A stretch of 64,000 bases of DNA from an uncultured Chloroflexia bacterium (GTDB lineage Bacteria > Chloroflexota > Limnocylindria > Limnocylindrales > CSP1-4): assembly GCA_963705215.1 (NCBI GenBank), contig CAVPJI010000010.1, positions 104,564 through 168,563 on the forward strand. Reading direction: 5' to 3'. Of the stretch, positions 5,915 through 50,308 are shown one piece after another. Both the position numbers and the translations under genes were made by a program. The notes under the pieces were generated by a model. That model saw only the letters and a program-made list of their open reading frames with translations. It was not told the DNA's origin and ran no database searches. The first letter of the stretch is position 1. The number at the start of each line of letters is the position of its first letter.

Positions 5915-6891
5915 TGGCCGCGGTCCGGCGCATCGAACCCCGCGACCCACCCCGGCCCGGGGAGCCGTTCCTCGAGGTCCGGGGTCTTGAGGTCGTGCGC
6001 GCGCAGCGGCGCATCCTCGCCGTCGACGAGCTCACGATCCGGGCGGGCGAGACGCTCGCGATCGTCGGTCCCAACGGCGCCGGCAAGAGCACGCTGCTCC
6101 TTGCTCTGGCCGGCCTCCTGCGCCCGGATCGGGGCTCGATCGTCGTCGAGGGCGTGCCCGTGGTCCCCGACCGGGACCTGACCTACCGACGACGGATCGG
6201 GCTGGTGCTGCCCGCGCCGCTGCTGCTGTCGACGTCGGTCTACGGGAACGTCGCCGCTGGCCTGCGCTTCCGGGGCGTCGACGCAGCGGAGACCCACGAG
6301 CGGGTCGAACACTGGCTGGAGCGGCTGGCGATCTCCCACCTGTGGGACCGTCCGGCCAGCCAGCTCTCGAGCGGCGAGGCGCAGCGGACGAGCCTCGCCC
6401 GCGCCCTGGTGCTGGATCCGGAGCTGCTCCTGCTGGACGAGCCGTTCGTGGCGCTCGACAGCAGGACGCGCGCGCAGCTCCTCGATGACTTCGAGCGGCT
6501 CCGGGCCGAGGCCCCGACGACGCTGGTGCTCGTGACGCACCACCTGCACGAGGCCGTCCGGCTGGGCGACCGCCTGGCCGTCCTGCTCGACGGGCGCATC
6601 CGCCAGTGCGACGTCCCGGAGCGGGTGATGGGGTCGCCGGTCGACGCGGACGTGGCCGCGCTCGTGCAGACCGAAGCGCGGATCCGGGGGCACGTGGTCG
6701 CGTCGGAGGACGGGCTGGTGGTCGTGGACACGGGAGCCGGGTCGAGACGGGACGTGGAAGGCCGTGCCCGGCGCCTCCTGGACGCGACGCACGCGACCGG
6801 ACCTGCGGCACGCGACGGCGCCAGCGGGGCGCATGATGCGAGCAGCGGAGCGGACGTACGCGCCGCGGCGGGCGGCCCTGGAGGTTCGTGA
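5914..6891 (+). CDS. tupC: Tungstate ABC transporter ATP-binding protein TupC.
   Basis: Walker A GPNGAGKST, signature LSSGEAQR, Walker B LLLLDEP, H-loop. The real protein starts at MAAVRRIEP inside ORF 5362..6891. Its stop overlaps the AOR start. Confidence 0.8.
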   Translation: MAAVRRIEPRDPPRPGEPFLEVRGLEVVRAQRRILAVDELTIRAGETLAIVGPNGAGKSTLLLALAGLLRPDRGSIVVEGVPVVPDRDLTYRRRIGLVLPAPLLLSTSVYGNVAAGLRFRGVDAAETHERVEHWLERLAISHLWDRPASQLSSGEAQRTSLARALVLDPELLLLDEPFVALDSRTRAQLLDDFERLRAEAPTTLVLVTHHLHEAVRLGDRLAVLLDGRIRQCDVPERVMGSPVDADVAALVQTEARIRGHVVASEDGLVVVDTGAGSRRDVEGRARRLLDATHATGPAARDGASGAHDASSGADVRAAAGGPGGS

Positions 6892-9116
6892 TGGGGTACG
6901 GGAGCAACGGGACGATCCTGCGGGTCGACCTGACCCGCGGAACCACCGCCGTCGAGACCTTCGAGGAGTCCTTCTACCGGCGCTATCCCGGCGGGAAGGC
7001 GCTCGCTGCGTACCACCTCCTGCGCGAGATGCCGGCCGGGGCGGATCCCCTGGGTCCCGACAACGTCCTCGTGCTCGCGACCGGCCTCCTGACCGGCGCG
7101 CCCGTCTCCACGGCGACGCGCTTCAATGCCATCGCCCGGTCGCCCCTCACCGGCGCCTTCGGCGAATCGGAGGCCGGCGGCTACTGGGGCCCCGAGCTGA
7201 AGATGGCCGGGCTCGACGCGATCATCCTCACCGGGCGGTCACCGGAGCCCGTCTGGCTCTGGATCCGCGACGGCGTGGCCGAGATCCGCGACGCGCGGAC
7301 GCTCTGGGGCCAGGACCCGCCGACGGTGCAGGCCGCCATCAAGGCCGCAGTCGGCGAGAAGAGCGCGCGGGTGCTCCAGATCGGCCGCGCCGGCGAGAAC
7401 CTCGTCCCCTACGCGATGCTCATGAACGAGCTGCGCCACTACAACGGCCGCACCGGGATGGGCGCCGTCATGGGCTCCAAGAACGTGCGGGCGATCGCGG
7501 TGAAGGGCTCGCGAAGGTACCTCGAGCTGGCCCACGACCCGGGGGCCCTCGGGGCGATCGGCAAGCGCCTCGCGGGGGAGATCGCCGACCACCCCCAGGG
7601 CTGGGACCTGCGGACGAAGGGAACGCCGGGCCTGACCGACGGCCTCAACGCCGGCGGCATCCTGCCGACGCGCAACTTCCGGCTGGGGTCGTTCGAGCAG
7701 GTCGAAGGGATCGGCTGGGCGGCCTACGAGGCCATCCGCAGCGGCACCCGCACCTGCTACCTGTGCGCCGTCCGCTGCAAGCCGGAGACCGCGTTCTCCG
7801 GGCGCTACACGGTCACCGACACCTACGACGGGCCGGAGTACGAGGGGATCGCCGGCTTCGGCTCCAACTGCGCGATCTTCGACCTCCAGCTGGTGGCCAG
7901 GGCCAACGAGCTGTGCAACGAGCTGGGCCTCGACGTCATCTCGACCGCGGGCACCGTCGCCTTCGTCATGGAGTGCGTGGAGCACGGCCTCCTCGGGCCC
8001 GCGGACCTCGGGGGCGTGGACCTGCGGTTCGGCAACGGCGAGGCGCTTCTCGACACGATCCCGCTCATCGCCGAGCGCCAGGGGATCGGCGAGCTGCTGG
8101 CCCTCGGATCGCGGCGGATCGCCGAACAGGTCGGCGGCGAGGCGATCTCCTTCGCCATGCAGGTCAAGGGCCTCGAGATGGCGATGCACGAGCCGCGTGG
8201 CAAGGTCGGCGTGGCCCTCGGCTACGCCACCAACGAGGCCGGGGCGGACCATCTCGTCGGCTTCCACGACGGCGTCTTCGTCAACCCCAAATCGGTCTCG
8301 TTCAAGGGCGCCACGAAGATCGGGATCACCGAGCCGGCCGACGTCTTCGACCTCGGTGAGACGAAGGTCCGCAACTGGTACACCGCGGAGCGCTGGAACA
8401 GCGCCGAGAAGGTCCTGGGCCTCTGCTTCTTCGGCCCGGCCCCGCGCTCCTTCATCCAGGTCGACGACGTGGTGGGCGCCGTGCGTGCCGCGACCGGCTG
8501 GGATGTCACGGTGGACGAGCTCCTCGACGTGGGCGAGCGGGCGGTCAACCTGGCCCGGCTCTTCAACGTCCGGGAGGGCTTCTCGCGGGCCGACGACCGG
8601 CTGCCCGGCCGGCTCCACGAGCCGCTCGAAGGCGGGACGCTGACGGGGCGCTCGATCGACCGCGAGGCGTTCGAGGCGGCGGTCACCCGGCTCTTCGAGC
8701 TCAAGGGCTGGGATCCGGCGACCGGTGTGCCGACGCCGGAGCGGCTGCGCACCCTGGGCCTCGACTCGGCCGCGGACCGGGTGGCGCTCGGGGGTGCCGC
8801 GCCCGGGGGTGCCGCGCCCGGGGGTGCCGCGCATCGGGGGTGCCGCGCTCGGGGCGCCAGGCGGATCCGTCGAGGCCCTGTGAAGGTCCATCTCTGGGGC
8901 GAGCTCGGCTTCTACGGCCCCGAGCGGCGGAGCCGGTTCGAGGTCCGGCTCGACGCCGAGCTGCCCCTGCGCGAGGTCCTGCGCCTGATCGGGGTGCCAG
9001 AGGCCGAGGTCGCGGTTGTGGGGCTCAACGGCGAGGTGGTCCGGCTCGACGACCCGTCCCTCGTCGTCCGCGACGCGGACCGCCTCGACCTCTTCCCGGC
9101 GACGAGCGGAGGCTGA
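6888..9116 (+). CDS. aor: Tungsten-containing aldehyde:ferredoxin oxidoreductase (AOR family). It runs in frame through a Gly/Ala/Pro repeat linker into a C-terminal MoaD/ThiS-like beta-grasp domain ending in Gly-Gly.
   Basis: MMGYGSNGTILRVDLTRG…, CYLCAVRCKP (4Fe-4S Cys motif), and the full-length AOR fold through …GVPTPERLRTLGLD. There is no stop codon before the linker GGAAPGGAAPGGAAHRG and the 79-aa tail. Confidence 0.9.
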   Translation: MMGYGSNGTILRVDLTRGTTAVETFEESFYRRYPGGKALAAYHLLREMPAGADPLGPDNVLVLATGLLTGAPVSTATRFNAIARSPLTGAFGESEAGGYWGPELKMAGLDAIILTGRSPEPVWLWIRDGVAEIRDARTLWGQDPPTVQAAIKAAVGEKSARVLQIGRAGENLVPYAMLMNELRHYNGRTGMGAVMGSKNVRAIAVKGSRRYLELAHDPGALGAIGKRLAGEIADHPQGWDLRTKGTPGLTDGLNAGGILPTRNFRLGSFEQVEGIGWAAYEAIRSGTRTCYLCAVRCKPETAFSGRYTVTDTYDGPEYEGIAGFGSNCAIFDLQLVARANELCNELGLDVISTAGTVAFVMECVEHGLLGPADLGGVDLRFGNGEALLDTIPLIAERQGIGELLALGSRRIAEQVGGEAISFAMQVKGLEMAMHEPRGKVGVALGYATNEAGADHLVGFHDGVFVNPKSVSFKGATKIGITEPADVFDLGETKVRNWYTAERWNSAEKVLGLCFFGPAPRSFIQVDDVVGAVRAATGWDVTVDELLDVGERAVNLARLFNVREGFSRADDRLPGRLHEPLEGGTLTGRSIDREAFEAAVTRLFELKGWDPATGVPTPERLRTLGLDSAADRVALGGAAPGGAAPGGAAHRGCRARGARRIRRGPVKVHLWGELGFYGPERRSRFEVRLDAELPLREVLRLIGVPEAEVAVVGLNGEVVRLDDPSLVVRDADRLDLFPATSGG
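8791..8850 (+). repeat. About 4 tandem copies of a 15-bp unit (GGGGGTGCCGCGCCC) encoding the (GGAAP)n linker between the AOR and MoaD-like parts.
   Basis: Seen directly: gggggtgccgcgccc gggggtgccgcgccc gggggtgccgcgcat cgggggtgccgcgct. Confidence 0.8.
8880..9116 (+). other. MoaD/ThiS-like sulfur-carrier domain (VKVHLWGELG…LFPATSGG*). It has an in-frame GTG that could also act as an independent start.
   Basis: It is 79 aa and ends exactly in GG before the stop. The beta-grasp pattern (V..NGE.V…D.L…P..GG) is like MoaD/AorD. Confidence 0.6.
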
Positions 9117-9395
9117 CCGGGCGGAGCGTCGGCCAAAGCCGCCGACCCACCTTGCGCTGAACGCAACACCCCGCGGCCCGGCGGTCAGCTCACGTCCGCC
9201 CACGGGTCCCCACGGCAGGATCCTTGCCTTGGCCAACCGCTTTCCTGCCGTCGCCATCCTCAGGACCAGGCCGGGCTGTCCGGAGGGCAGCCTTCTTGCG
9301 CCTGACCTGCGAGAACCTGCTGGGCGAACGTGACCGCCTGCGCGGTGTTGCGTTGAACGCAACCCCGACCGGCGCGGGGGGGTGCCGGGCCAGAG
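9107..9395. repeat. Dispersed repeat copy A (about 290 bp), immediately after the AOR stop. The terminal palindromes are TTGCGCTGAACGCAA and GTTGCGTTGAACGCAAC, and there is an internal near-palindrome GGCAGGATCCTTGCC.
   Basis: Near-identical to 10250..10541 over about 290 bp in direct orientation. The ends are TTGCG-N5-CGCAA palindromes. Confidence 0.85.
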
Positions 9396-9488
9396 TCGGC
9401 GCCGGGCACGAGGCGGCGCCGCGGATCACGCTCGGACAGTCAACTCGCCGTTGAGTCGCATGTAAGTGACGCCACCCACAATGGCTGC

Positions 9489-10595: not shown

Positions 10596-11871
10596 TCAGG
10601 CGTCGAGTCCGCGAAGCACCCAGGCGACGGTCTCCGCGCCCGCCGGGAGGTCGACGTCCGGCGGGATGAACAGCATGCCGTTCGCAAGCGAGAGCGAGGC
10701 CAGCATGTAGGAGTCCTGGCCACCCGACGAGCGGGCGACGAGCCCGTCCGGGCGGTCCGGGTCAGGTGCCAGGGCGACGCGGGCGACGGTGATCCGGCCG
10801 TCGGACCCCCGCATCGGCTCGGTGAGACGGACGATGCGTTCCGGCCGGTCGAACGCCCGCGCATGGCCGGCCAGCAGGCGCAGGACGGGCCGCACGAAGA
10901 GCTCGAACGTGACGAAGACGCTCACCGGGTTCCCGGGAAGCCCGAAGAGGCGGACGGATCGACCGCCGACGGTCGCCCGGGCGAACGCGAACGGGCGTCC
11001 CGGCTTGATCGCGACCCGCCAGACGTCCAGCGTCCCGACGTCGGAGAACGCGGCCTTGACATGGTCGTGCGCGCCCACGCTGACGCCGCCGCTGAGGATG
11101 ACGACGTCGGCCCAGGCCACGCCCTCGCGGACGAGCGCGAGCAGGTCGGGCAGCGTGTCGCGCGCGACGCCGAGCCGGCGCACCTCGGCGCCCGCGTCGG
11201 CCGCCTGCGCTGCGAGCGCGTACGAGTTGGAGTCGTGGATCTGGGCCGGCCCCAGCGGCTGACCGGGCGGAACGAGCTCGTCGCCGGTGGAGATCACCGC
11301 GACGCGCGGCCGGCGGTGAACCGTCACCGTGGCGTGCCCGGTGGCCGCGAGGAGCGCGATGGCCGCCGGATCGCAGGCCCGGCCGCGATCGAGGAGGGCG
11401 GCGCCGGCGACCACGTCGGTACCGGGGAGGCGCACGTTGGCACCCCGGCGCAGGGCGGCGCAGGATCGCGACCGAAGCGGGGATCTCCGAGGCGCCGGCC
11501 GACGCATCCGTGTCTTCGACGGGCACCACGACGTCGGCGCCGGGCGGCATCATCGCGCCGGTCATGATCCGGAGCGCCGTCCCGGGCACGACCTCCCCGT
11601 CCGGGGTCCGGCCGGCGGGCACCTCGCCGAGAACCCGGAGGACGACCGGATGGCCGGGGCCCGCCGCGGCGATGTCCTCGAAACGGGCCGCGAAGCCGTC
11701 CATGGCGCTGTTCGTCCACGAGGGAACCGTCAGCTCCGAACGGACCGGGCCGGCCAGGACGAGGCCTGCGGCGTGGGCGAGGTCGACGACCTCCACGGGG
11801 AGCGGTTCGATCCCGTCGAACACCCGGCGCTGGGCCTCGGCGAGTGGGATCAGGTCCGGAAGATCGGGCAT
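10596..11871 (-). pseudogene. moeA: Molybdopterin molybdenum/tungsten-transferase MoeA, disrupted by a 10-bp tandem duplication (about 11445-11464; CCGGCGCAGG/GCGGCGCAGG on the plus strand).
   Basis: The N-terminal MoeA part is in ORF 10762..11871 and the C-terminal part (…VAVISTGDELV…GGVSVG…LPGNPVS…) is in ORF 10596..11507. Removing one 10-bp copy restores …SVAILRRGANVRLPGTDV…. Confidence 0.8.
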
Positions 11872-13541: not shown

Positions 13542-13742
13542 CGGTCTGCTCTCCCCTGCGTGCCGGCGTTCCCCGGGCCCGCGGCGGCGGCCCCACCGAT
13601 CCATCGGACCCCCGGTCCGCCTTGACCCGCTACGGCACGCCTATCATCGCGCACTCGGCCGCGAACGTGGACCGCGCGGTACCAGGCCGGGCGAACGAGG
13701 CCGGGCGTTGTGCCGCGAGTGCCGCGCGTGCCGCGCCGCCTG

Positions 13743-14612
13743 CTACCGGTCTGCGGTCGGCGGTGCGCCGTTCGGGGGGATCGGCTCGGTCGGGAACTCC
13801 GGCGCAGGGACCTCGTTCGGAGGGCGGGCCTCGTTCGGAGCCGAGGTTCCGTTGGGCGCCGGTGGCTGGTCGGGCGTTGCCGGAGAGTCGGGCGCCGCGG
13901 CGTCGGCGGGCGAGATCGGCGCCGTCGGCCCGGGTGCGTCGGTGAGGGGAGTCGGCTCCGTGGGCGCAGTCCTCGCACCGCGACGCCGCAGCGCGATCGC
14001 GGCCGCCACGAGCAGTCCGACGCCCACGAGGAGGAGTGCGAGGAGCGCGAGCCCTCCGTTCGACCCGTCGCCCGAGCCTTCGGCGGGCGGCGGCGACGGG
14101 ATTGGCGTGACGTCGACGGTCTGGGCCGGGGTTGGCGCCGGGCTGGGTGTGGGCGACGGGCTCGGCGAAGGCGAAGCCGTCGGCGACGGCGTGGCGGTCG
14201 GGCTCGCCGTCGGCACAGGCGTTGGCGTGGACGGGGTGGGCGAGGGACTCGCCGTCGGAACAGGCGTTGGCGTCGGTGTCGCTGTCGGCGCTGGCGTTGG
14301 GGTCGGCGTCGCCGTCGGCGCTGCGGTCGGCGCAGCCGTCGGCGTCGGTGTCCGCGTCGGCCTGGGCGTCCGGGCCGGGGTGGGCGCCGGGGTCGGCTCG
14401 ACCGTTGGCGCCGGCGTTGCCTCCGCCGTCGGCGCTGCGGTCGGCTCTGCCGTGGGCGCCGGCGTCGCAACCGGCGGAATCGAGACCGTGGGACGCGGCG
14501 GCAAGGACGGGAGGCCGCTGGGCAGCTCGATCCCGCCGCAGCCGGCGACAAGCGAGGCGAGTACGGCGACCAGCGCGACACCGCGGGCTCCCGCCAGGAT
14601 CCGGCTGCTCAT
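13743..14612 (-). CDS. Lipoprotein with a long Pro/Thr/Ala-rich linker, a C-terminal TM helix and a Pro-rich tail.
   Basis: [27 protein letters not shown] lipobox, about 150 aa of (PTPTPA)n, and [27 protein letters not shown]. The underlying DNA is low-complexity and repetitive. Confidence 0.5.
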
Positions 14613-14689
14613 GACCACGCGTGACCTCCCGTGACGAAGGGGCGACGGACGCCCCGCAAGACGCGAGGCCGGCGCCTCGCGTCCGGTGC

Positions 14690-15142
14690 CTACTGCGTCG
14701 CGGGGCAGCCGATCTGGCTCTGCACCTCGGCGAAGGCGGTCTTCACGTCCGCGCCCGCTGCCTTGGCGGCATCGACCTGCTCCTGGGTGGGCGCGTTCTG
14801 GTCGATGGCGCCCAAGGCGGCCTCGAAGGTCGTCCAGGACTCCACGAGCGCGGCTTCGCCCGGCACGTCGACGAACTCCAGGCTGGTCGCGACGGCGGTG
14901 TAGGTCCCCCGCAGGCGGTTGACCTGGGGGGCGAGGTTCGAGGCGCCGATGGCCACCACGTCCACGCCCTCGAACTGGAACACGGCGTCGGCGAAGGCGC
15001 TCATCGCGGCGCAGGCGGCGGCCTCCGCTGGGGGCAGCGTTGGCGCTCCGGGTGTGCTGGAGGAACCTCCGGAGCAGGCGGCGGTCCCGAGCACGAGGGC
15101 GGCCGTGGCGACGACCAGGGTAAGCCGGGATCGGAGGGACAT
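14690..15142 (-). CDS. Small secreted lipoprotein (about 150 aa), paralogue of the next gene.
   Basis: [26 protein letters not shown] lipobox. It has a conserved Cys pair (…AACAAM…GCPATQ). Confidence 0.5.
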
Positions 15143-15305
15143 GGCGAAGCTCCTCAGCGGGCATATCGTCTTCGGCTCGGTAGTGGCCAGAATACAGCCC
15201 CGACCGTGCCGTCGAAGCGCACGACGCCGGGATGCCGGCCGCCGCGCCGATTTCGCTGTCCGGGGCGCGGGCGGTGCGCCCCGGGCATCGTGCGCGGCGC
15301 GAAGC

Positions 15306-15874: not shown

Positions 15875-16765
15875 CTACCCGTGGGCCCCCCGCGCATAGC
15901 TGCCCAGGACCCGCACCGAGGTCGTCACCCCGGCCAGATCGTCGAGCGCCTCCCGCGTGGTGAGCGCGCTCGCATCGGCATCGAGGTCGACCCAGAAGAC
16001 GTACTCCCAGGGCCGGTCTTGGGCCGGTCGGCTCTCCAGCTTCGACATGTTCAGGTCGTGGTCGGCGAAGACGGTCATCGCCCGCAGGAGGGCGCCCGGC
16101 TCGTTCCGGATCCCGATCACGAGCGTGGTGCGGGCAGCACCGGCCGGGTCCACGGCGGCCGTCTGCGCCGCGGGCAGCGATGCCTCCGGTGGCGCGACGA
16201 CCAGGAAGCGTGTCCGGTTGTCGGGATCACCCTGGATGCCATCGGCGAGGATCTCCAGCCCGAAGAGCGCCGCGGCCCGGGGCGAGAGGACGGCCGCCGC
16301 GCCACGTTCGCTCCGCTCGACGATCGCCTTCCCGGCGCCGGCAGTGTTGTACGTCGTGAGGAGCGTCCAGGGCCGGGCGCGCAGGAACACGTCGGCCTGG
16401 CCCAGCGCCTGGACGTGCGAGTAGACGCGCTCGATCCCGTCCAGCGTCTCCCCCGGAAGCGCGGCGAGGCACAGTCGGACGGGCACGACCACCTCGCCCC
16501 GGATCTCGAGCGCGAACTCGAGGAGGAGGTCGTAGTTCTCGCGCACCGTGCCGTTGACGAGGTTCTCGATGGGAACGACGCCTGCGATGGCCCGGCCGTC
16601 GGCGACGGCCTCGAAGACGCCCCGGAAGCCTCCGATCGGCAGTGTCGAGGCCTCCGCGCCGAAATAGGCGCGCACGGCGTCCTCGGCGAAGGCGCCGGGC
16701 TCGCCGGAGTACGCGACCGCGAGCGAGGCGGGCGTGCGGGGTCCGGGTGACGTGGGCCGGGTCAT
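15875..16765 (-). CDS. pheA: Prephenate dehydratase with a C-terminal ACT domain.
   Basis: PDT domain (VAYSGEPGAFAE…) plus an ACT domain (TLVIGIRNEPGALLRAMTVFADHDLNMSKLESRP). ATGA overlap with the upstream ORF. Confidence 0.85.
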   Translation of the reverse strand: MTRPTSPGPRTPASLAVAYSGEPGAFAEDAVRAYFGAEASTLPIGGFRGVFEAVADGRAIAGVVPIENLVNGTVRENYDLLLEFALEIRGEVVVPVRLCLAALPGETLDGIERVYSHVQALGQADVFLRARPWTLLTTYNTAGAGKAIVERSERGAAAVLSPRAAALFGLEILADGIQGDPDNRTRFLVVAPPEASLPAAQTAAVDPAGAARTTLVIGIRNEPGALLRAMTVFADHDLNMSKLESRPAQDRPWEYVFWVDLDADASALTTREALDDLAGVTTSVRVLGSYARGAHG

Positions 16766-17253
16766 CGGTCGAACCAGCTCCCACCCAGCTCGTCGGCCTG
16801 CGACTCGTCCAGCTCGGCGCGGCCGCCCGCCCGTGCGGCACCGGCACGGAGCTCGGCCAGGCGGGCGTTGCCGGCGGCCTCGGTCGCCCCGGCCCAGGCG
16901 TCGTCGGCGAGGAGAGCCCGCAGTGCCTCGAGATACGCCTCAGCGCAGGCAGCGACCAGGTTCACGTCACGGGCGGTCCCGACATGGCGCCCCGTCGCTC
17001 GCTCGCCGGTGGCCGTGGCGGGCGGCTCGACCGCAAGCTCCACCAGCGCGTCGGCGCCGGCCGTCTCGCCGATCGCGTGGACGTCGAACGAGACCAGGCG
17101 CACGCGCCCGCCGAGAACGTCCGCGAGGGCGGCGTCCACGGCGTCGAACAGCGATCCGATCGCGCCCGCGCTCTCGGCCGTGGCCTCCCACTGGTGATCG
17201 CCGGCGGCAAGGACGACGGCCGCCCGGGCGATGCCCGACGAGCCGGTCGTCAT
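16762..17253 (-). CDS. Standalone protein resembling the LeuA C-terminal allosteric/dimerisation (LeuA_dimer) domain, translationally coupled (ATGA) to pheA.
   Basis: AGAIGSLFDAVDAAL…RVRLVSFDVHAIGETAGADALVELAVE…VGTARDVNLVAACAEAYLEAL runs parallel to the regulatory domains of both LeuA-family proteins in this window. It lies in the C-terminal part of the spurious-looking ORF 16762..19761. Confidence 0.45.
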   Translation of the reverse strand: MTTGSSGIARAAVVLAAGDHQWEATAESAGAIGSLFDAVDAALADVLGGRVRLVSFDVHAIGETAGADALVELAVEPPATATGERATGRHVGTARDVNLVAACAEAYLEALRALLADDAWAGATEAAGNARLAELRAGAARAGGRAELDESQADELGGSWFDR

Positions 17254-17348
17254 CGTCCAGCGGAGAAGGTGCAGCCCCTCGGGCCGGGGCACCGGCCCAC
17301 CGGGCGCCCCGCGCGCGCCCAGCCCAGCTTCGCCGCCCCGGTGCTCGC

Positions 17349-19067
<1,719 letters not shown>

Positions 19068-19138
19068 TGGGGTCACGGATCGGTTCCTTCGAAGTCGAGT
19101 CGGACTGGATCGGGCGGCTCGGGCTTGGGCGACCGCCG

Positions 19139-20326
19139 TCAGGCGATCGCCCCGGTAATCCCGATCCGGGCCACGATCGCGTCGGCCATCGCGACGGTCC
19201 CCACACGGGCGCAGGCTTGAGCCAGGGCCGGGTCGCGCGGCCAGATGTCGGCGGTACGGAAGCCGTCGTCGAGGGCGCGCCCCACGGCCGCCTCCACCGC
19301 GTCGGCGGCGTCGGCGCGGCCCAGCGACCAGCGCAGGAGCAACGCCGCGGAGAGGATCGTGCCCACCGGGTTCGCCAGGTCCTGCCCGGCGATGTCCGGC
19401 GCCGAGCCGTGGATCGGCTCGTAGAGCCCGTGCAGGCCGTGCGCAGTCCGCCGCGTGCCGATGGAGGCGGAGGGCAGCATCCCCAGGCTCCCCGCCAGCA
19501 CCGACGCCTCGTCGGACAGGATGTCGCCGAACAGGTTCTCGGTGACCAGCACGTCGAAGCTCGCCGGGGCCCGCACGATCTGCATCGCGCAGGCGTCCAC
19601 GAGCCGGTCGTCGAGGGCCACGTCGGGGTATTCGGCGGCGATCTCGTGGACGACGGTCCGCCACAGGCGGGACGTTGCCAGGACGTTGGCCTTGTCGACG
19701 CTCGTGAGGCGGCGACTGCGACCGCGGGCCAGGTCGAAGGCCAGCCGCGCGACGCGGGCAACCTCCGCCTCGGAGTACGGCAGCAGGTCGCTGGCGGCGC
19801 GCGCGCCCGGGGCGCCGGTCGCCTCGGTGCGCGAGCCGAAGTAGAGGCCGCCGGTCAGCTCGCGGACGATGAGCATGTCGACGCCCTCGAGGAGCTCCGG
19901 GCGGAGCGGCGACGCGGGCACGAGCGTCGGATGGACGCTCACGGGGCGCAGGTTGGCGAAGAGGCCGAGGCCCCCGCGCATGGCGAAGAGGGCCTGCTCG
20001 GGGCGAACGGTGGCCTGCGGGTCGTCCCAGCGGGGGCCGCCGACGGCACCGAGCAGGATCGCGTCGCTGGCTGCGCACACGGCGAGGTCCTCGTCGCGGA
20101 TGGCCACCCCGTACGCGTCGATCGCGGCCCCGCCCGCGACGAGGTCCGTCCACGCGAGCGCGAACCCGAAGCGGGCGGCGACGGCCGCGAGGACGCGCTT
20201 CGCCGCGCCGACGACAGCGGGCCCGACGCCGTCGCCCGGGATCGCGACGAGGCGGTAGGTCGGGCCCGGGCTGCCCGACCTGCCGGCGGCCCCGGTCGAG
20301 CCCGGAAGGCCACCCTCCGTGGTCAC
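19139..20326 (-). CDS. leuB: 3-isopropylmalate dehydrogenase.
   Basis: RLVAIPGDGVGPAV…NLFGDILSDEASVLAGSLGMLPSAS. GTGA overlap with the leuA stop. Confidence 0.85.
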   Translation of the reverse strand: MTTEGGLPGSTGAAGRSGSPGPTYRLVAIPGDGVGPAVVGAAKRVLAAVAARFGFALAWTDLVAGGAAIDAYGVAIRDEDLAVCAASDAILLGAVGGPRWDDPQATVRPEQALFAMRGGLGLFANLRPVSVHPTLVPASPLRPELLEGVDMLIVRELTGGLYFGSRTEATGAPGARAASDLLPYSEAEVARVARLAFDLARGRSRRLTSVDKANVLATSRLWRTVVHEIAAEYPDVALDDRLVDACAMQIVRAPASFDVLVTENLFGDILSDEASVLAGSLGMLPSASIGTRRTAHGLHGLYEPIHGSAPDIAGQDLANPVGTILSAALLLRWSLGRADAADAVEAAVGRALDDGFRTADIWPRDPALAQACARVGTVAMADAIVARIGITGAIA

Positions 20327-21951
20327 GGCAGCTGCTCCGCCGAGCGGCGCATCGGGATGACCGTGCCGTCGAGCTCCGCCGCGCGGAGCTTGTTGGCCGC
20401 CAGGACATAGGCCTCCAGCGAGGCCTCGATGATGTTCGTGGAGAGGCCGTGGCCGGTGACCACGTGCGCCTCGGGGCTGGCGTCGATCGAACGCCGGCAG
20501 CGGATGAAGACGCGGCCCTGCGCGTCCTCGCCCTCGGTGATCGCCTTGATCTCGTACTCCTCGAGCGTCGGCTCCCAGCCCAGGATCGGCCGGATCGCGT
20601 CGTCGACCGCTCGATAGAGGGCGTTGACCGGCCCGTTGCCGGTCTCCTCGCCGGCCCGCTCCTCGCCGTCGAGGGTGACCCGGACGCTCCCGGTGGAGCG
20701 GCCGCCGTGCGACGAGGTCACGCTCCAGCCCTCGAGGATGATCGAGGCCGGGACGTCGTCGGAGCGCTGCTGGGCGAGGGCGAGGAGGTCGGCGTCGGTG
20801 ACCTCCTTCTTGAGGTCGGCCAGCGCGATCGCCTCGCGGTAGATGACGTCCAGGGCATCGCCCGAGACATCGTGGCCCAGGTCGCGCAGCTTCTTCTGGA
20901 GCCCCTTGCGTCCCGACAGCTTGCCGATCGTGAGCTGGCTGCCCGAGAGGCCGACGGACTGGGGGGTCATGATCTCGTAGGTGAGCGGGTTCTTGATGAC
21001 GCCGTCCTGGTGGATCCCGCTCTCGTGGGCGAACGCGTTGGCGCCGACCACGGCCTTGTTGGGCTGGATGGCGAAGCCGGTCAGGTGGCTCACGAGCCGG
21101 CTGGCGGACGAGATCTGGTCGGTCTGGACCCGGCTGGCCAGGTCGGGGAACTGGGTGGGTCGCGTGCGGAGGGCCATGACGACCTCCTCCAGCGACGCGT
21201 TCCCGGCGCGCTCGCCGAGCCCGTTGATCGTGACCTCCACCTGGCGCGCGCCGGCCTGGACGGCGGCGAGCGTGTTGGCGGTGGCGAGGCCGAGGTCGTT
21301 GTGGCAGTGGATCGAGACGGTTGCCTGGTCGCCGACCAGCGCGTAGACCCGTTCGACGAGCGCGCCGAACTCGGACGGGATCGCGTAGCCGACCGTGTCG
21401 GGGATGTTGACCGTGGAGGCACCGGCTCCCACGACCGCCTCGTACACCTGGAGCAGGTACTCCGGGTCGGTGCGCGAGGCGTCCTCGGCCGAGAACTCGA
21501 TCTCGGCATCGCGTCCCAGCTGCTCGCGGCCGTAGCGGACCCAGCGGATCGCTTCCGCGAGGGCCTCCTCGCGTGACAGCTTGAGCTTGTGCTTGAGGTG
21601 GATGTCGGAGGTGGCGATGAAGACGTGGAGATGGGGGCGCTCGGCGACCTTGATCGCCTCGATCGCGCGCTGGGGATCGCCGTCGCGGCAGCGGGCGAGC
21701 GCGGCGACGGCCACGCCCTTGGTCTCCTTCGCGATCCGGTGGACGGCCTCCCAGTCGCCCGGCGAGGCCGCCGGGAATCCGGCCTCGATGACGTCGACCT
21801 TGAGGCGGACGAGCTGGCGGGCGACCTCCAGCTTCTCGGCGGCGGTCAGGCCGGCGCCCGGCGCCTGCTCCCCGTCGCGGAGGGTGGTGTCGAAGATACG
21901 GACGGAGCCCGCGGGGACGAACGGGCCGGCGGGTACGGGAACCGACGGCAT
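20323..21951 (-). CDS. leuA: 2-isopropylmalate synthase (bacterial short type).
   Basis: IFDTTLRDGEQAPG…IHCHNDLGLATANTLAAVQAGARQVEVTINGLGERAGNASLEEVVMAL…GNGPVNALYRAVDDAI. Collinear with E. coli LeuA. Start at MPSVPVP. Confidence 0.85.
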   Translation of the reverse strand: MPSVPVPAGPFVPAGSVRIFDTTLRDGEQAPGAGLTAAEKLEVARQLVRLKVDVIEAGFPAASPGDWEAVHRIAKETKGVAVAALARCRDGDPQRAIEAIKVAERPHLHVFIATSDIHLKHKLKLSREEALAEAIRWVRYGREQLGRDAEIEFSAEDASRTDPEYLLQVYEAVVGAGASTVNIPDTVGYAIPSEFGALVERVYALVGDQATVSIHCHNDLGLATANTLAAVQAGARQVEVTINGLGERAGNASLEEVVMALRTRPTQFPDLASRVQTDQISSASRLVSHLTGFAIQPNKAVVGANAFAHESGIHQDGVIKNPLTYEIMTPQSVGLSGSQLTIGKLSGRKGLQKKLRDLGHDVSGDALDVIYREAIALADLKKEVTDADLLALAQQRSDDVPASIILEGWSVTSSHGGRSTGSVRVTLDGEERAGEETGNGPVNALYRAVDDAIRPILGWEPTLEEYEIKAITEGEDAQGRVFIRCRRSIDASPEAHVVTGHGLSTNIIEASLEAYVLAANKLRAAELDGTVIPMRRSAEQLP

Positions 21952-21952
21952 C

Positions 21953-23008
21953 TCAGTGGGCCTTTCCTGCTGTGTCCGAGGCGCTGGCCTGGGCCTGGCC
22001 GGCGCGCACGGTGACGGGGTTGAGGAACGGCATGCCTGCCCGAAGGCCGGCGCCGACCTGCTCGATCTGGTGATCGCGGTCCTGGGCGCGGAGGCGCTCG
22101 AACTCGGGGCGGCCGGCGTCGTTCTCGGCGATCCAGCTGGCGGCGAAGGTGCCGTCCTGGATCTCCGCGAGGACTGCCCGCATCGTGGCGCGGACACGCT
22201 CGTCGATGATCCGCGGCCCGGAGACGTAGTCCCCGTACTCGGCGGTGTCGCTCACGCTGAAGCGCATGAAGTTGAGGCCGCCGCGATACATGAGGTCGAC
22301 GATGAGCTTCAGCTCGTGCATCGTCTCGAAGTAGGCGAGCTCGGGCTGGTAGCCGGCCTCCACGAGCGTCTCGAAGGCCATCTTCACGAGGGCGGCGGTG
22401 CCGCCGCAGAGGACGCTCTGCTCGCCGAAGAGGTCGGTTTCGGTCTCCTCGGCGAACGTGGTCTCGAGGACCCCGGCCCGCGTGTTGCCAAGCCCGCGGG
22501 CATAGGCAAGGACGCGGGCGCGGGCGGTCCCGGTGGCGTCCTGGTGGACCGCGAACAGGGCCGGCACGCCGCCGCCGCTCTTGTAGACGGAGCGGACGAG
22601 GTGGCCGGGGCCCTTGGGGGCGACCATCCCGACGTCGACGCCCTCCGGCGGGGCGATCCGGCCGTAGCGGATGTTGAAGCCGTGGGCGAACAGGACGAGG
22701 GTGCCCGGCTTCAGGTTCGGGGCGATCTCCGCGTCCCAGGCCGCCTTCTGGGCCGTGTCGGGGATCGCGATCATCACGACGTCGGCGGCGGCCACGGCGG
22801 CCCCCGTGTCGAGCACGGGGAGGCCCGCCTCCGAGGCGAGCGCGCGGCTCTTCGAGGCCGGCGGGAGGCCCACGACGACGTCGACGCCCGACTCGCGCAG
22901 GTTCAGCGCGTGGGCGTGGCCCTGGCTGCCGAACCCGATGATCGCGACGGTCTGGCCGGCCAGCGCCGCCAGGTCCGCGTCCGCGTCGTAGTACATCTTC
23001 GCCGTCAT
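21953..23008 (-). CDS. ilvC: Ketol-acid reductoisomerase.
   Basis: [22 protein letters not shown] is the Rossmann NADPH site, and the sequence is collinear with full-length IlvC. Confidence 0.9.
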
Positions 23009-23586
23009 CGCTTGGTGGCCTCCTCGATCGACTGCGCGCCCCGCGACATCACGACCGTCCCGGTGCGCACCATCTCCTTGATCCCGTAGCCGCGGAGGAG
23101 GGTGATCAGGGCGTCCACCTCCGACTCGGTGCCCGTCGTCTCGACGATGACGGCCTCGGCCGCCATGTCCACGATCCGGGCCTTGTACATCTCCACGATG
23201 GAGATCAGCTCCCCGCGCGTGCGGTCGGTCGCCCGCACCTTCACGAGGACGAGCTCGCGCTGGACGGTCGGCTCGTCGGTGACGTCCTGGACCTTGAGCA
23301 CGTCGATGATCTTGTAGAGCTGCTTGGCGGCCTGCTCCACGAGGACGTCGTCCGCGCGGAGGGTGATCGTCATGCGGCTGATCTTGGGGTCGTCCAGGTG
23401 GCTGACGGCCAGCGACTCGATGTTGAAGTTGCGGGCGCGCATGAGGCTGGCGACCCGGTTCAGAACGCCGGGACGGTTGTTCACGATCGCCACGAGCACG
23501 TGGCGGCGCTGCTCGCCGGTCCCCGGCAGGGTGCGCGGCGGGGGTGCGCTGTGGGCGGGCACCCGGGCGGATCCGTCGGGGCTCAT
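23005..23586 (-). CDS. ilvN: Acetolactate synthase small (regulatory) subunit.
   Basis: [33 protein letters not shown] is the ACT domain. ATGA overlap with the ilvB stop. Confidence 0.85.
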
Positions 23587-25541
23587 TCGTCGGCTCCTCC
23601 CCAGGTCTCGATGAGGTCCGAGAGGCCTTTGCCGGCGGGCATGATCGGCAGGACGTTCTGCTCCTCGGCGATCTCGAACCAGACGAGCGCCGGGCCGTCG
23701 ACGGCGTTGGCGGCCTCGATGGCGGGCCGCACCTCCTCGGGCGACCGGACCTTCCAGGCCGGGATGCCGTAGGCGTCGGCGAGCTTCAGGTAGTCGGGAC
23801 CGAGCATGTTGGAGGAGTGGTAGTTGCCGCCGTAGAAGATCTCCTGCCACTGCCGGATCATCCCGAGCTTGTGGTTGTCGAGGAGGGCGATCCGAACCGG
23901 GATCCGATCCTGCACGAGCGTGGCCAGCTCCTGGATGGTCATCTGGAAGCCGCCGTCGCCGCAGATCGCCCAGGTCGACTTGTCGGGACGGCCGAGGGCA
24001 GCGCCCATGGCCGCCGGGACCGCGAAGCCCATCGTGCCCAGGCCGCCGGAGCTGAGGTGGCTGTGCGGCCGCCGGTAGCCGGCGTAGCGCGCCGTCCACA
24101 TCTGGTTCTGCCCGACGTCGGCCACGAGGGTCGCATCGTGATCCGTGGCCTCGCCGATCTGGGCGACCACGAAGTCCGCCGAGAGGAGCCCGTCGCGCCA
24201 GGCGCCCGAGCCGTGCCAGCTCGATCCCTCCGAGTCCAGCCGCCACTCGGCGAGCTGGGCCAGGTAGCCGTCCCGCTCCGCCCCAGCTCCGGGCTGCACC
24301 AGCGGGAGCAGGCCGCCCAGGACGCGCTTCGCATCGCCCACGACGGGGATGTCCACGGCCACGTTCTTGCCGATCTCGGCCGGGTCGATGTCGACGTGGA
24401 TGATCCGCGCGTACGGCGCGTAGGTGCGCACGCTGCCGGTCACCCGGTCGTCGAAGCGCATGCCCACGGCGATGATGAGGTCGGAGGCCTGGATCGCGCG
24501 GTTGACGTGCTTCCAGCCGTGCATCCCCATGTAGCCGTAGGCCAGGGGATGGGTCTCGTCCATGGCACCGACCCCGAGGAGGGTCCACGCGACGGGGATC
24601 CGGGCCTTCTCGGCGAGGATCCGGAGCTCCTCGGTCGCGTCGGCGATGAGGATCCCGTGGCCGGCCAGGATGATGGGTCGGCGAGACTGCGCGATCTCCT
24701 CGGCGATGAGCTTGAGCTGCCGGGGATGGCCGCCCAGGTTCGGGCGGAAGCCCGGCAGCCCGGCCACGACCTCCTCGTCAGTTGGGTGGGGCGCGTCGGT
24801 CTCCTGCTGGAAGGCATCCTTCGTGATGTCGATGTGCACGGGGCCGGGCCGGCCCGTCCGGGCGATGTGGAAGGCCTCGGCCAGGACGCGGGGGAGGTCG
24901 TCGGCGTCGCGCACGAGGTAGTTGTGCTTGGTCATCGGCAGGGTGATGCCGGTGATGTCGATCTCCTGGAACGCGTCCTTGCCGAGGAGCGCGGCGGTCA
25001 CGTTGCCGGTGATGGCCACCATCGGGATGGAGTCGAGCTGGGCGTTGGCGATCCCGGTGACGAGGTTCGTGGCGGCCGGGCCCGAGGTGCCCAGGCACAC
25101 GCCCACCTTGCCGGTGGCACGGGCGTACCCGTCCGCGGCATGGGCGGCGCCCTGCTCGTGGCGGACGAGCACGTGACGGAGCTCCGGGTGGTCGCCCAGG
25201 ACGTCGTAGAGCGGCAGGATGACCCCGCCGGGGTAGCCGAACAGGACGTCGACACCCTGGCGGAGGATCGCCTCCACGAGGACATCGGCGCCGATCCGGG
25301 CGCGCTTCCCGCGTCGCTCGGCGGCATCCAGGCGGGCCTGGTTGCCCTCGTGCAGCATCTCCTGACGGGCCTTCTCGACGGCGTCCGCGGCCGCCGTCCC
25401 GGCGCCCGGCACGTGGCTGCGGCGCGTGCCGCCGGCCGACGGGGGTGGCCCCACGGACGCGTCCGCGGCCGCAGCCGCGTCCGCCGCCGCGGCCGTCGCG
25501 TTCGGGGGAGCCGCCGCCCCCTCGCCCTTCGTCATCGCCAT
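23583..25541 (-). CDS. ilvB: Acetolactate synthase large subunit (TPP/FAD enzyme). The N-terminus has an Ala-rich extension of about 70 aa; alternative start MLHEGNQ.
   Basis: [12 protein letters not shown]…[14 protein letters not shown]…, i.e. the TPP motif GDG…N, collinear with IlvB. Confidence 0.85.
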
Positions 25542-28460: not shown

Positions 28461-29933
28461 GTGTCCGACCCCCGCCCCGCCGACGCGCCCGCACCCCGCC
28501 CTCGCACGCTCGTCGAGAAGATCTGGGACGACCACGTCGTCGCCCAGGACGAGGGCGCCCCCGCCGTCCTGGCAATCGACCTCCACCTCGTCCACGAGGT
28601 GACGTCGCCGCAGGCCTTCACGAGCCTGCGCGCCCGCGGCCTCCGCGTCCGCCGCCCCGAGCGCACGGTCGCGACCGCCGACCACTCCACGCCCACGGCG
28701 CCGCGCGGCCTTCCGATCATCGACCCGATGGCCGCCGCCCAGGTGAAGCAGCTGGAGGCGAACTGCGCGGAGTTCGGAATCCCGATCCACGCCTACGGCA
28801 GCGACACCCAGGGGATCGTCCACGTCATCGGCCCGGAGCTCGGCCTGACCCAGCCGGGCATGACGATCGTGTGCGGCGACAGCCACACGGCGACCCACGG
28901 AGCGTTCGGGGCCCTTGCCTTCGGGATCGGGACGAGCGAGGTCGAGATGGTCCTCGCCACCCAGACCCTCCTCCAGCGGCAGCCGAAGACCTACGAGGTC
29001 CGGGTCGACGGCCGGCTGCGTCCCGGCGTCGGGGCGAAGGACGTCATCCTCGCCCTCATCGCCCGGATCGGGATCGGCGGCGGCACCGGCCACGTCTTCG
29101 AGTATCGCGGCGAGGCGATCCGCGCGCTCTCGATGGAGCAGCGGATGACGATCTGCAACATGAGCATCGAGGGCGGGGCCCGGGCCGGCCTCGTCGCGCC
29201 CGACGACACGACCTTCGAGTACGTCCACGGTCGTCGCCATGCCCCACAGGGCGCGGCCTGGGACACCGCGGTCACCGGCTGGCGGACGCTCCCCACCGAC
29301 GAAGGCGCGGCGTTCGACACCTCGATCGCGCTCGATGCGAACACCCTCGAGCCGATGATCACCTGGGGCACGAACCCCGGCATGGGCATCCCCGTGAGCG
29401 GGCGCGTGCCCCGGCCTGAGGACGCCGCCGACCCGTCCTCGCGCCGCGCTCTCGAGCGGGCGCTCGAGTACATGAGCCTGCAGGCCGGCCAGCCGATCGC
29501 CGGTCAGCCGGTCGAGGTCGTCTTCATCGGCAGCTGCACCAACTCCCGGATCAGCGATCTGCGCCAGGCCGCCGCCGCCCTCGAGGGCCGCCACGCGGCC
29601 GAGGGCGTGCGCCTCATGGTCGTGCCGGGCAGCCAGCAGGTGAAGGCCCAGGCCGAGCGCGAGGGGCTCCACGAGATCTTCCGCGCGGCCGGCGCCGAGT
29701 GGCGCGAATCTGGCTGCTCGATGTGCATCGCCATGAACGGCGACCAGCTCTCGCCCGGCCAGTACGCCGTCAGCACCAGCAACCGCAACTTCGAGGGCCG
29801 CCAGGGGCGGGGCGGGCGGACGCTCCTCGCGTCGCCGCTCACCGCCGCGGCAAGCGCGATCGCCGGCGTCGTCACCGACCCGCGCACGCTGCCCGGGATC
29901 GAGCAGCCGGCCATGGTCGGCGGGGGGTACTGA
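28461..29933 (+). CDS. leuC: 3-isopropylmalate dehydratase large subunit.
   Basis: Aconitase-family motifs: VCGDSHT, Cys ligands FIGSCTNSR…CSMCIAMN, and [12 protein letters not shown]. Confidence 0.9.
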
Positions 29934-29936
29934 GCC

Positions 29937-30572
29937 GTGGCCGAGCCGTTCCGCCAGTTCACGAGCAAGGTCGTCCCGCTTCCCGCGGAGAACGTCGACA
30001 CGGACCAGGTGGTCCCGGCGCGCTACCTCAAGATCACCGACAAGGCCGACCTCGCGAACGCCCTCTTCCGCGACTGGCGCTTCAACGACGACGGGTCGCT
30101 CAAGGACCCGCCGTTCGTCCTCGACCGGCCGGAGATGGCCGGGCGGCAGATCCTCCTCGTGGGCGACAACTTCGGGACCGGCTCCTCGCGCGAGCACGCG
30201 CCCTGGGCGCTCACGGCGTGGGGGATCCGGGCCGTCTTCTCCACCAGCTTCGCCGACATCTTCCGCAGCAACGCCCTCAAGAATGGGGTCCTGCCGATCG
30301 TCGTCGACCCGGCGACCCACGCCCGGCTGTTCGATCTCGTGGAGGCGAACCCCGACGCCCGCCTGACGGTGGACCTCGCCGAGCAAGGCGTCCTGCTCCC
30401 GGATGGAAGCACGCTCGACTTCGAGATCGATCCCTTTGCCAAGCAGATGCTCCTCGCCGGCACCGACGAGATCGGGTACGTTGCCACGAAGCTCCCCGCG
30501 ATCGAGGCGTGGGAGGCCGCCCGCCCCGCCCGCGTCGACACGCGCCTCGGGACGCCGCCCGCCACGCCCTGA
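29937..30572 (+). CDS. leuD: 3-isopropylmalate dehydratase small subunit.
   Basis: VGDNFGTGSSREHAPWAL aconitase swivel-domain motif. Directly follows leuC. Confidence 0.9.
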   Translation: MAEPFRQFTSKVVPLPAENVDTDQVVPARYLKITDKADLANALFRDWRFNDDGSLKDPPFVLDRPEMAGRQILLVGDNFGTGSSREHAPWALTAWGIRAVFSTSFADIFRSNALKNGVLPIVVDPATHARLFDLVEANPDARLTVDLAEQGVLLPDGSTLDFEIDPFAKQMLLAGTDEIGYVATKLPAIEAWEAARPARVDTRLGTPPATP

Positions 30573-49846: not shown

Positions 49847-50308
49847 ACTCCCCCGGAGTATAACAGGGCATCAAGGCGCCCCGACGGGCGCGCCGAGATG
49901 GTGTCGTGCGGGCGGGTCGTCGGGTTCCACGCCGAACGGGCCGTCAGGACCTTGACCGCGGGGCATGCCCGCCGGACGATGCGGGCATGACGCGCGAGAG
50001 GACGGGCGACCCAAAGGATGGCGACCAGCACGAAGGCGGTGCCCGGTTCGTCCCGGTAGCGGGGTCGTTCGGGACGGCTGCAGTCATCCCGGGACCGATC
50101 ACCGCCGGGCCGCCGCAGCCCGAGCCGGAGGAGCGCTGGACGCTCGCCCCGGGCCACCGGCCGGCCGCTCCGGGTTCCACGGTCGACGAGCCGGTCGAGG
50201 GCGTCGTCGCCAGCCCCGAACCCGTAGAGCCGTAGCCGCGCCGCGCCGCGCTCGGCAGCCGCCCGAACCGGGCGCTTCCCCCCTCGGGCGGGACGCTACA
50301 CTCCGGCG

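Follow-up and report, generated by a model that had tools for sequence, protein, structure and literature searches.

Within a 64,000-nucleotide stretch of DNA from an uncultured Chloroflexia bacterium (contig CAVPJI010000010.1; hereafter the window), the gene at 16762..17352 encodes a free-standing LeuA_dimer protein of 196 residues, here labelled X, within an operon of the order ilvB-ilvN-ilvC-leuA-leuB-cimA-X-pheA, all on the minus strand. This order had been read in a preliminary description of the DNA and is borne out by NCBIfam and Pfam models; a Pfam match above the cut-off and a match in fold likewise uphold its proposal that X is a free-standing LeuA_dimer domain. We are almost certain that X is a real, functional stand-alone protein of this family; by analogy with isolated domains of the same type, a ligand-binding dimer is slightly the better bet, and judging from sequence the chance that X serves as a trans-acting regulator of a pathway enzyme falls a little short of even. 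Feedback control of branched-chain amino acid synthesis is textbook allostery; to our knowledge, the LeuA regulatory domain has so far been known only in covalently attached form, and although separate regulatory subunits of amino acid enzymes exist (IlvN/IlvH), we know of none built on the LeuA_dimer fold. A literature search found no publication on a free-standing LeuA_dimer protein.

The G+C content of the window is approximately 73%, so that mechanical lists of open reading frames (ORFs) are crowded with long spurious frames. As the preliminary description had recognized, X is hidden in one of these: its frame forms the 3' end of a mechanical 999-residue ORF (16762..19761), the upstream part of which crosses cimA and leuB out of frame, and codon-position G+C, notably at third positions, places a frame switch at approximately 17350, upstream of which the coding frame is that of cimA, ending at 17349. 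The stop (TGA) and frame given earlier for a 163-residue protein (16762-17253) stand, but its start does not. In alignment, the homologues all start farther upstream with M-S-[ED], followed by a variable G/P/A-rich segment and then the strand L-x-L-x-R-W-T; the ATG at 17253 falls within this first beta-strand, at a position where the homologues have V, S or I (RWT[MVSI]), and inspection of the sequence found no Shine-Dalgarno-like site ahead of it. Read from the sequence, a GTG at 17352-17350 follows a Shine-Dalgarno GGAGG (17359..17363), which sits 6 nucleotides (nt) ahead of it inside the final cimA codons, and overlaps the cimA TGA (17351-17349) in a GTGA (17349..17352). On these grounds we take the true start of X to be the GTG and not the ATG, giving the 196-residue protein. 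Several gene callers also cut X to 163 residues at the same internal ATG in public protein collections.

The arrangement recurs in relatives. In 53 of 73 related loci the inferred X start is preceded by a Shine-Dalgarno-like 5-mer, often as GGGAGGTAG, in which the TAG is the cimA stop; cimA and X overlap by a 4-nt [AG]TGA in 33 related loci and are separated by 2-7 nt in about 32, the rest being visibly frameshifted long-read assemblies. Overall, about 65 of 78 loci have the X start no more than 8 nt from the stop upstream of it. Synthesis of X as a CimA-X fusion by frameshifting or read-through was rejected, because the offsets of the X start from the end of the cimA stop (-3 and +3 to +8) fall in all frames and X has its own Shine-Dalgarno site. 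No promoter- or terminator-like site was found between cimA, X and pheA, and no Rfam match in the window.

Against Pfam PF08502 (LeuA_dimer; gathering cut-off 24.9 bits) the 196-residue protein scores 42.6 bits, with residues 25-147 aligned to profile positions 20-130 of 131; the 163-residue version had scored 35.7 bits (E=9.5e-9), from profile position 31 onward. LeuA_dimer is the only Pfam family matched: X gave no match to the HMGL-like or HCS_D2 domains, nor to ACT or ALS_ss_C, and its best score against the NCBIfam models for 2-isopropylmalate synthase (IPMS) or citramalate synthase (CMS), namely TIGR00973, NF002086 and TIGR00977, was 33.2 bits, against a cut-off of 532. Judged by its sequence, the database name '2-isopropylmalate synthase' on some X homologues is wrong. 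A profile search of Protein Data Bank (PDB) sequences returned nothing at E<=0.01; the only entry, the Leptospira citramalate synthase (LiCMS) at E=0.62, was used solely for residue mapping.

An AlphaFold2 model of X, built on 21 homologues, has a confident core (predicted local distance difference test, pLDDT, approximately 92), and residues 1-24 and 188-196 are disordered. Three regions are distinguished. A variable, G/P/A-rich N-terminal linker (residues 2-24; 17281..17349; pLDDT approximately 40) precedes the LeuA allosteric domain (residues 25-149; 16906..17280), which is supported by Pfam, AlphaFold and Foldseek; across the X family, the segment ahead of the first strand varies from 5 to 60 residues. 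In the model, the domain comprises strands 28-36, 41-50 and 53-62, helix 64-80, strands 85-92, 102-109 and 123-129, and helix 132-147, so that X, as modelled, keeps the complete regulatory-domain fold of two beta-beta-beta-alpha units. All 12 of the Foldseek PDB matches at E<=0.001 are LeuA or LiCMS regulatory domains, namely M. tuberculosis LeuA (3FIG, 3HPS, 3HPZ, 1SR9) and LiCMS (3F6G, 3F6H), with top E values of 2e-6 to 3e-5; against the isolated LiCMS domain (3F6G/3F6H) the target template-modelling score (TM-score) is 0.75-0.81.

The third region, a family-specific C-terminal tail (residues 150-196; 16765..16905), consists of a helix (150-181), a short linker and a terminal motif D-x-x-x-W-F-x-R; no tail like it was found on LeuA or CimA. 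W153 and A156 are invariant in it, and W193 and F194 occur in 71 and 72 of 74 sequences, respectively. The C-terminus reads aromatic-[N/D]-[R/H/Q] in all subfamilies, as DWF[NDE]R in that of the window and [LM][YF]N[RHP] in the others, and looks like a docking peptide. Residues that are invariant in X and were not found in LeuA (R31, R43, D52-H53-x-W55, H92, P110-P111, R118, W153 and W193-F194) mark a function specific to the family. Nucleic-acid binding was considered and judged unlikely: the X family is acidic (median isoelectric point 5.0, net charge approximately -10), and Foldseek hits to a double-stranded RNA-binding domain and to uS5 were weak (E>=0.02), with poor TM-scores.

A word-indexed search returned 178 homologue clusters of 53-95% identity, the named ones from metagenome-assembled genomes (MAGs) of Chloroflexi and Ca. 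Limnocylindria. When 1.8 billion representatives were searched exhaustively with a profile, no more than 303 proteins reached E<=0.001; almost all of these are short, so the X family is distinct from ordinary LeuA C-termini. Counted as one genome per species, there are at least 89 species-level relatives, all from Chloroflexota/Limnocylindrales except for a few short contigs binned elsewhere, probably in error. The gene order ilvC-leuA-leuB-cimA-X is found in every locus with enough flank, and the conservation and synteny raised as a question in the preliminary description are thereby answered in favour of X by 89 species-level genomes.

Such breadth bears on whether X could be the functionless relic of a third, decaying gene of the LeuA family, or an artefact of gene calling. 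Long spurious ORFs are common at 73% G+C, no gene of the operon is less conserved than X, and frameshifted pseudo-fusions of X occur in public databases. Ratios of nonsynonymous to synonymous substitution (dN/dS) were estimated by the Nei-Gojobori method, which is saturated and biased at this G+C, so that the values serve for comparison only: they are 0.41 for the X domain, 0.56 for the tail and approximately 1.7 for the N-terminal linker, which is unconstrained, as compared with 0.23 for CimA, 0.26 for LeuA, 0.40 for the LeuA regulatory domain alone, 0.36 for PheA, 0.31 for LeuB and 0.26 for IlvC. By this measure, the X domain is as constrained as LeuA's own sensor domain. A lineage of lower G+C, in which X directly follows ilvB, gave 0.08 for X and 0.09 for IlvB, at synonymous sites that are more informative there. 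Because X is constrained like the LeuA sensor domain, well below a ratio of 1, and falls to 0.08 in the lower-GC lineage, a remnant or artefact is effectively excluded, and we give it next to no chance; invariant residues throughout domain and tail across the at least 89 genomes, a conserved ribosome-binding site and start, and the confident fold prediction also stand against it.

The X domain shares 25% identity with the regulatory domain of the window's LeuA (E=6e-6), and has no significant match to that of its CimA; typical family members reach 40% identity with the LeuA domain (E=5e-17), again with no significant match to that of CimA. X thus appears closer to the LeuA type than to the CimA type, a qualification of the earlier claim of likeness to the domains of both enzymes. 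Since LeuA and CimA each retain a complete LeuA_dimer domain of their own, X is a third copy and did not split off from the end of either gene.

The isoleucine-binding pocket of LiCMS, as reportedly described by Zhang et al. (Biochem J 2009), consists of Tyr430, Leu451, Tyr454, Ile458 and Val468, with Pro493 and Gln495 from the other chain. The equivalent positions among 74 X sequences hold I/V65, L86 (74/74), Y/F89, L/V/I94, V104 (74/74), G/S/D129 and N131 (71/74), and the same positions in the window's LeuA are V, L, Y, I, V, S and N, residues which match those of the X family. The pocket of X is, on this mapping, conserved and LeuA-like, for which reason leucine is favoured and would be the most likely ligand. 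Most family members also keep the G.GP-like loop noted in the preliminary description, with the consensus GNG[AP][IV]DAL; in the window copy itself the loop is degenerate, and SAGAIGSL retains only the central G and the I of G-x-G-P-[VIL]-[DN]-A.

An isolated LeuA regulatory domain (PF08502), that of a CimA, has been shown to bind isoleucine specifically on its own and to form dimers and tetramers, and was developed as an isoleucine biosensor in 2026 (PMC13381585). When leucine binds to the regulatory-domain dimer of full-length IPMS, the accessory and regulatory domains become rigid over the active site (PMC9860122). X has no accessory domains and so cannot act in cis as IPMS does; any action it has must therefore be in trans.

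The genes that flank X in relatives point to where such an action might lie. The preliminary description had X coupled to pheA, and an ATGA overlap can indeed be read in the window (16762..16765; pheA ATG 16765-16763, X TGA 16764-16762), but the overlap is not conserved in relatives, where the conserved coupling is to the upstream gene. That X is a regulatory subunit of PheA, linking phenylalanine synthesis to branched-chain levels, would accord with the overlap and with the presence of pheA after X in most loci of the window's subfamily (X1), as well as in sister loci L090, L092, L093 and L097. Among window-type relatives, however, about 10 loci have pheA displaced by 1-4 kb and another 4 have none within 6 kb, elsewhere thrC-thrB, ask-asd or unrelated genes take its place, and PheA has an ACT domain of its own; we regard a role with PheA as very improbable.

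A more distant sister subfamily of free-standing LeuA_dimer proteins, from Limnocylindria/Chloroflexota, occupies the order ilvBNC-leuA-leuB-cimA-ilvE-X (L083, L085-L087, L089, L093, L097-L121) with thrC-thrB, ask-asd, pheA or unrelated genes downstream, depending on the locus; no copy of this subfamily was found elsewhere in the 64-kb window. In a third context, seen in two lineages of 56-61% G+C, X directly follows ilvB (L088 4254-6498, identical to L095; L094 769-3014, and L096). There are thus three independent coupling contexts, cimA-X, ilvE-X and ilvB-X without ilvN, and across them the conserved link of X is, by gene order, the branched-chain pathway enzyme directly upstream (cimA, ilvE or ilvB) and not pheA. 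The very variety of these upstream neighbours, together with that of the downstream genes (pheA, thrC-thrB, ask-asd, unrelated genes or rRNA) and the competent binding of an isolated LeuA_dimer domain, would also suit an autonomous amino acid binder, a buffer or a signal to a process encoded elsewhere, that sits at the end of the operon for co-expression only. In each of the three contexts, though, X is persistently coupled by stop and start to a pathway enzyme, which together with the docking-like C-terminal motif suggests a protein partner instead, and we rate an autonomous binder as distinctly unlikely.

The ilvB-X loci provide what is, from sequence, the most suggestive clue to a partner, resting on two lineages in which X stands in the slot of ilvN. 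Their ilvB encodes an acetolactate synthase large subunit of the biosynthetic type (TIGR00118, 687 bits) and shares a stop/start overlap of 4-8 nt with X, a GGAGG site is present, and no ilvN was found in the neighbourhood, although only the loci were seen and ilvN may lie elsewhere in those genomes. A phage origin was rejected for the L088 locus, in which a homing endonuclease gave the only PHROG hit and a closely following bacterial 16S rRNA gene shows a chromosomal location. That 16S rRNA gene (L088 6928-8688) carries a group I intron (7726-8036), and an ORF for a LAGLIDADG homing endonuclease lies at 8993-9448.

Taken at face value, these loci would make X an alternative or additional small subunit of acetolactate (acetohydroxyacid) synthase (AHAS), with a LeuA-type sensor in the role of IlvN. 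The comparably low dN/dS of X and IlvB in this lineage (approximately 0.08-0.09) and the presence of ilvB in every X-bearing operon seen fit such a subunit. The possible persistence of ilvN elsewhere in these two lineages counts against it, a single deletion spanning ilvN to ilvE would give the same junction, the window and about 100 other loci have ilvN beside ilvB with X six genes off, and no sequence or fold relation of X to ACT or ALS_ss_C was found. An AHAS subunit seems to us quite improbable.

For CimA, the clue is a motif. Beyond the end of the TIGR00977 model (CimA residue 527), the CimA of the window carries the sequence RRRDERHF(TT) (17385..17408), which is exact in 67 related loci and is followed by a variable tail; its codons show free synonymous variation, so the motif is selected at the protein level. 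RRRDERHF co-occurs with the X family, and most loci of the sister subfamily share a related RRDER core. A basic motif on CimA and an acidic X (net charge approximately -10) are a lead for a contact between the two proteins, read from their sequences, and not evidence of it.

The same motif is also compatible with a decoy or heterodimer, in which X would pair with the regulatory domain tethered in LeuA or CimA, displacing the second domain of that enzyme, or would stack on the regulatory-domain dimer, such that feedback is blunted or retuned with no new effector. X has the fold of the LeuA regulatory domain at 25-40% identity, the isolated LiCMS domain forms tetramers besides dimers, and X is made in 1:1 translational coupling with a CimA that bears the conserved extra C-terminal motif. 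A free domain would nevertheless have to out-compete full-length enzymes that hold both regulatory domains in one dimer, X is strongly selected beside ilvB where neither leuA nor cimA lies within 5-6 kb, and the family-specific tail would be superfluous for simple mimicry; we consider a decoy rather unlikely.

Apparent fusions of CimA with X (P0229, P0213, P0124) and of X with prephenate dehydratase (P0134, P0157) were rejected as evidence for a partner, as they contain long R/P/A-rich out-of-frame stretches. From their sequences all five are frameshifted read-throughs, artefacts of assembly or gene calling in high-GC genomes. Entries P0124, P0134, P0157, P0213 and P0229 could mislead domain-architecture or Rosetta-stone analyses.

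We propose that X arose when a LeuA-type allosteric domain was duplicated, released and then extended by a helical tail with a C-terminal aromatic motif. It is translated from its own ribosome-binding site in tight stop/start coupling to the upstream branched-chain gene, here cimA. X would dimerize and, like isolated LeuA_dimer domains, would bind a branched-chain amino acid, in all likelihood leucine, where the two subunits meet; its family-specific surface and C-terminal motif would then let it act in trans on an enzyme of the same operon. The consequence would be a second effector input: leucine might, for instance, control the isoleucine branch or the first step that the branches share. 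Leucine and isoleucine branches share LeuCD and LeuB in organisms of the citramalate pathway, and a speculative rationale is that the leucine and citramalate/isoleucine branches have these enzymes and precursors in common. The candidate partners are CimA, whose gene is coupled in translation to that of X in about 80 species, and acetolactate synthase, beside whose ilvB X replaces ilvN in two lineages; taken singly, CimA is an improbable partner, and AHAS is a little more so. In its most specific form, the proposal has X dock by its C-terminal aromatic motif on citramalate synthase or acetolactate synthase and confer leucine sensitivity, in some lineages replacing the ACT-type IlvN by non-orthologous displacement; we put this forward tentatively, with the odds well against it.

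Several observations weigh against regulation in trans by an effector-binding X. LeuA, CimA, AHAS (through IlvN) and PheA (through ACT) each have a regulatory module of their own here, such that no enzyme is obviously without a sensor. X evolves faster than its neighbours, with 42-50% identity where CimA keeps 70-84%. The degenerate loop of the window copy (SAGAIG in place of GNGAID) is shared by its clade, and the ligand there may differ or be bound weakly. The list of LiCMS pocket residues used for mapping was checked only for the identities of the residues, which agree with the 3F6G chain sequence. The three coupling contexts have different neighbours and hence indicate no single partner, and the ilvB-X junction could stem from the one deletion described above. 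What is said of X beyond its fold and its conservation is inferred.

Of known systems, the LeuA allosteric domain (PF08502; M. tuberculosis 1SR9, leucine-bound 3FIG) is the closest, with a common fold (E=2e-6), a Pfam match and shared pocket residues. X differs from LeuA in lacking the catalytic TIM barrel and the accessory subdomains, in having its own start and ribosome-binding site, in its extra 47-residue tail ending in WF-x-R and its family-specific invariant residues, and in scoring 19-33 bits with NCBIfam IPMS models that have cut-offs of 532-748. The isolated regulatory domain of LiCMS (3F6G/3F6H), which X matches by model, demonstrates that a lone LeuA_dimer domain folds, dimerizes or tetramerizes, and binds an amino acid (PMC13381585); it was cut from an enzyme by engineering, whereas X occurs naturally as a gene product, is 14-18% identical to it and is more LeuA-type.

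The third comparison is one of genetic arrangement. IlvN/IlvH, composed of ACT (PF22629/PF13710) and ALS_ss_C (PF10369) domains, is the classic case of a separately encoded regulatory subunit in the branched-chain pathway. Like X, it is encoded by a small separate gene coupled to a catalytic one; dimerization and amino acid binding are presumed for X, which fills the ilvN slot after ilvB in the two lineages. The likeness goes no further than genomic position and presumed role: the two proteins are unrelated in fold and family, and a normal ilvN is also present in the window.

Among Limnocylindria MAGs annotated at NCBI and JGI, entries for the X family bear the name 'alpha-isopropylmalate synthase regulatory domain-containing protein' or else 'LeuA allosteric (dimerisation) domain', which restates the domain only, and many others are labelled 'hypothetical protein' or, wrongly, '2-isopropylmalate synthase'; function, partner and ligand are absent from the entries. 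The results would correct the '2-isopropylmalate synthase' and 'hypothetical protein' annotations as well as the 163-residue calls. If X does act as proposed, it would be the first LeuA_dimer protein shown to work in trans, the LeuA module would prove detachable and reusable as a subunit, as ACT domains are in IlvN, and there would be a handle on cross-regulation of the leucine and isoleucine branches. X might also offer a naturally minimal amino-acid-binding scaffold for biosensors. If it is only a ligand buffer, a modest improvement in annotation remains. The host class, Ca. Limnocylindria, comprises widespread soil and freshwater bacteria that are uncultured.

The remaining genes of the operon are assigned as follows. 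Its upstream part (19139..25412), in which consecutive genes overlap by 4 nt, contains ilvB (23583-25412 or further), with the thiamine pyrophosphate (TPP) enzyme domains; ilvN (23005-23586), with ACT and ALS_ss_C; ilvC (21953-23008), with KARI_N and KARI_C; leuA (20323-21957), identified by NF002086 at 655 bits and bearing its own LeuA_dimer domain at 105.6 bits; and leuB (19139-20326; TIGR00169, 445 bits). The citramalate synthase gene cimA (17349..19025, with a start uncertain between 18989 and 19025) scores 635 bits against TIGR00977 (cut-off 450) and encodes HMGL-like, HCS_D2 and LeuA_dimer domains, the last at 88.8 bits. Downstream of X, pheA (15875..16765) encodes a prephenate dehydratase (NF008865, 209.8 bits) with a PDT domain and its own ACT domain. 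On the plus strand, leuC and leuD (28461-30572) are found a few kb past ilvB, with a gene for an M28 peptidase and a DUF4287/DUF5655 gene between.

Elsewhere in the window, the intervals of approximately 47600-50300 and 13550-15300 contain no ORF backed by codon-position G+C, and they gave no Pfam match among the long mechanical ORFs tested and no Rfam match. At 6888-9116 on the plus strand, an aldehyde:ferredoxin oxidoreductase (AFOR_N and AFOR_C) carries a fused C-terminal ThiS/MoaD-like domain (residues 685-742), and a MoeA-like gene lies nearby at 10596-11435 on the minus strand.

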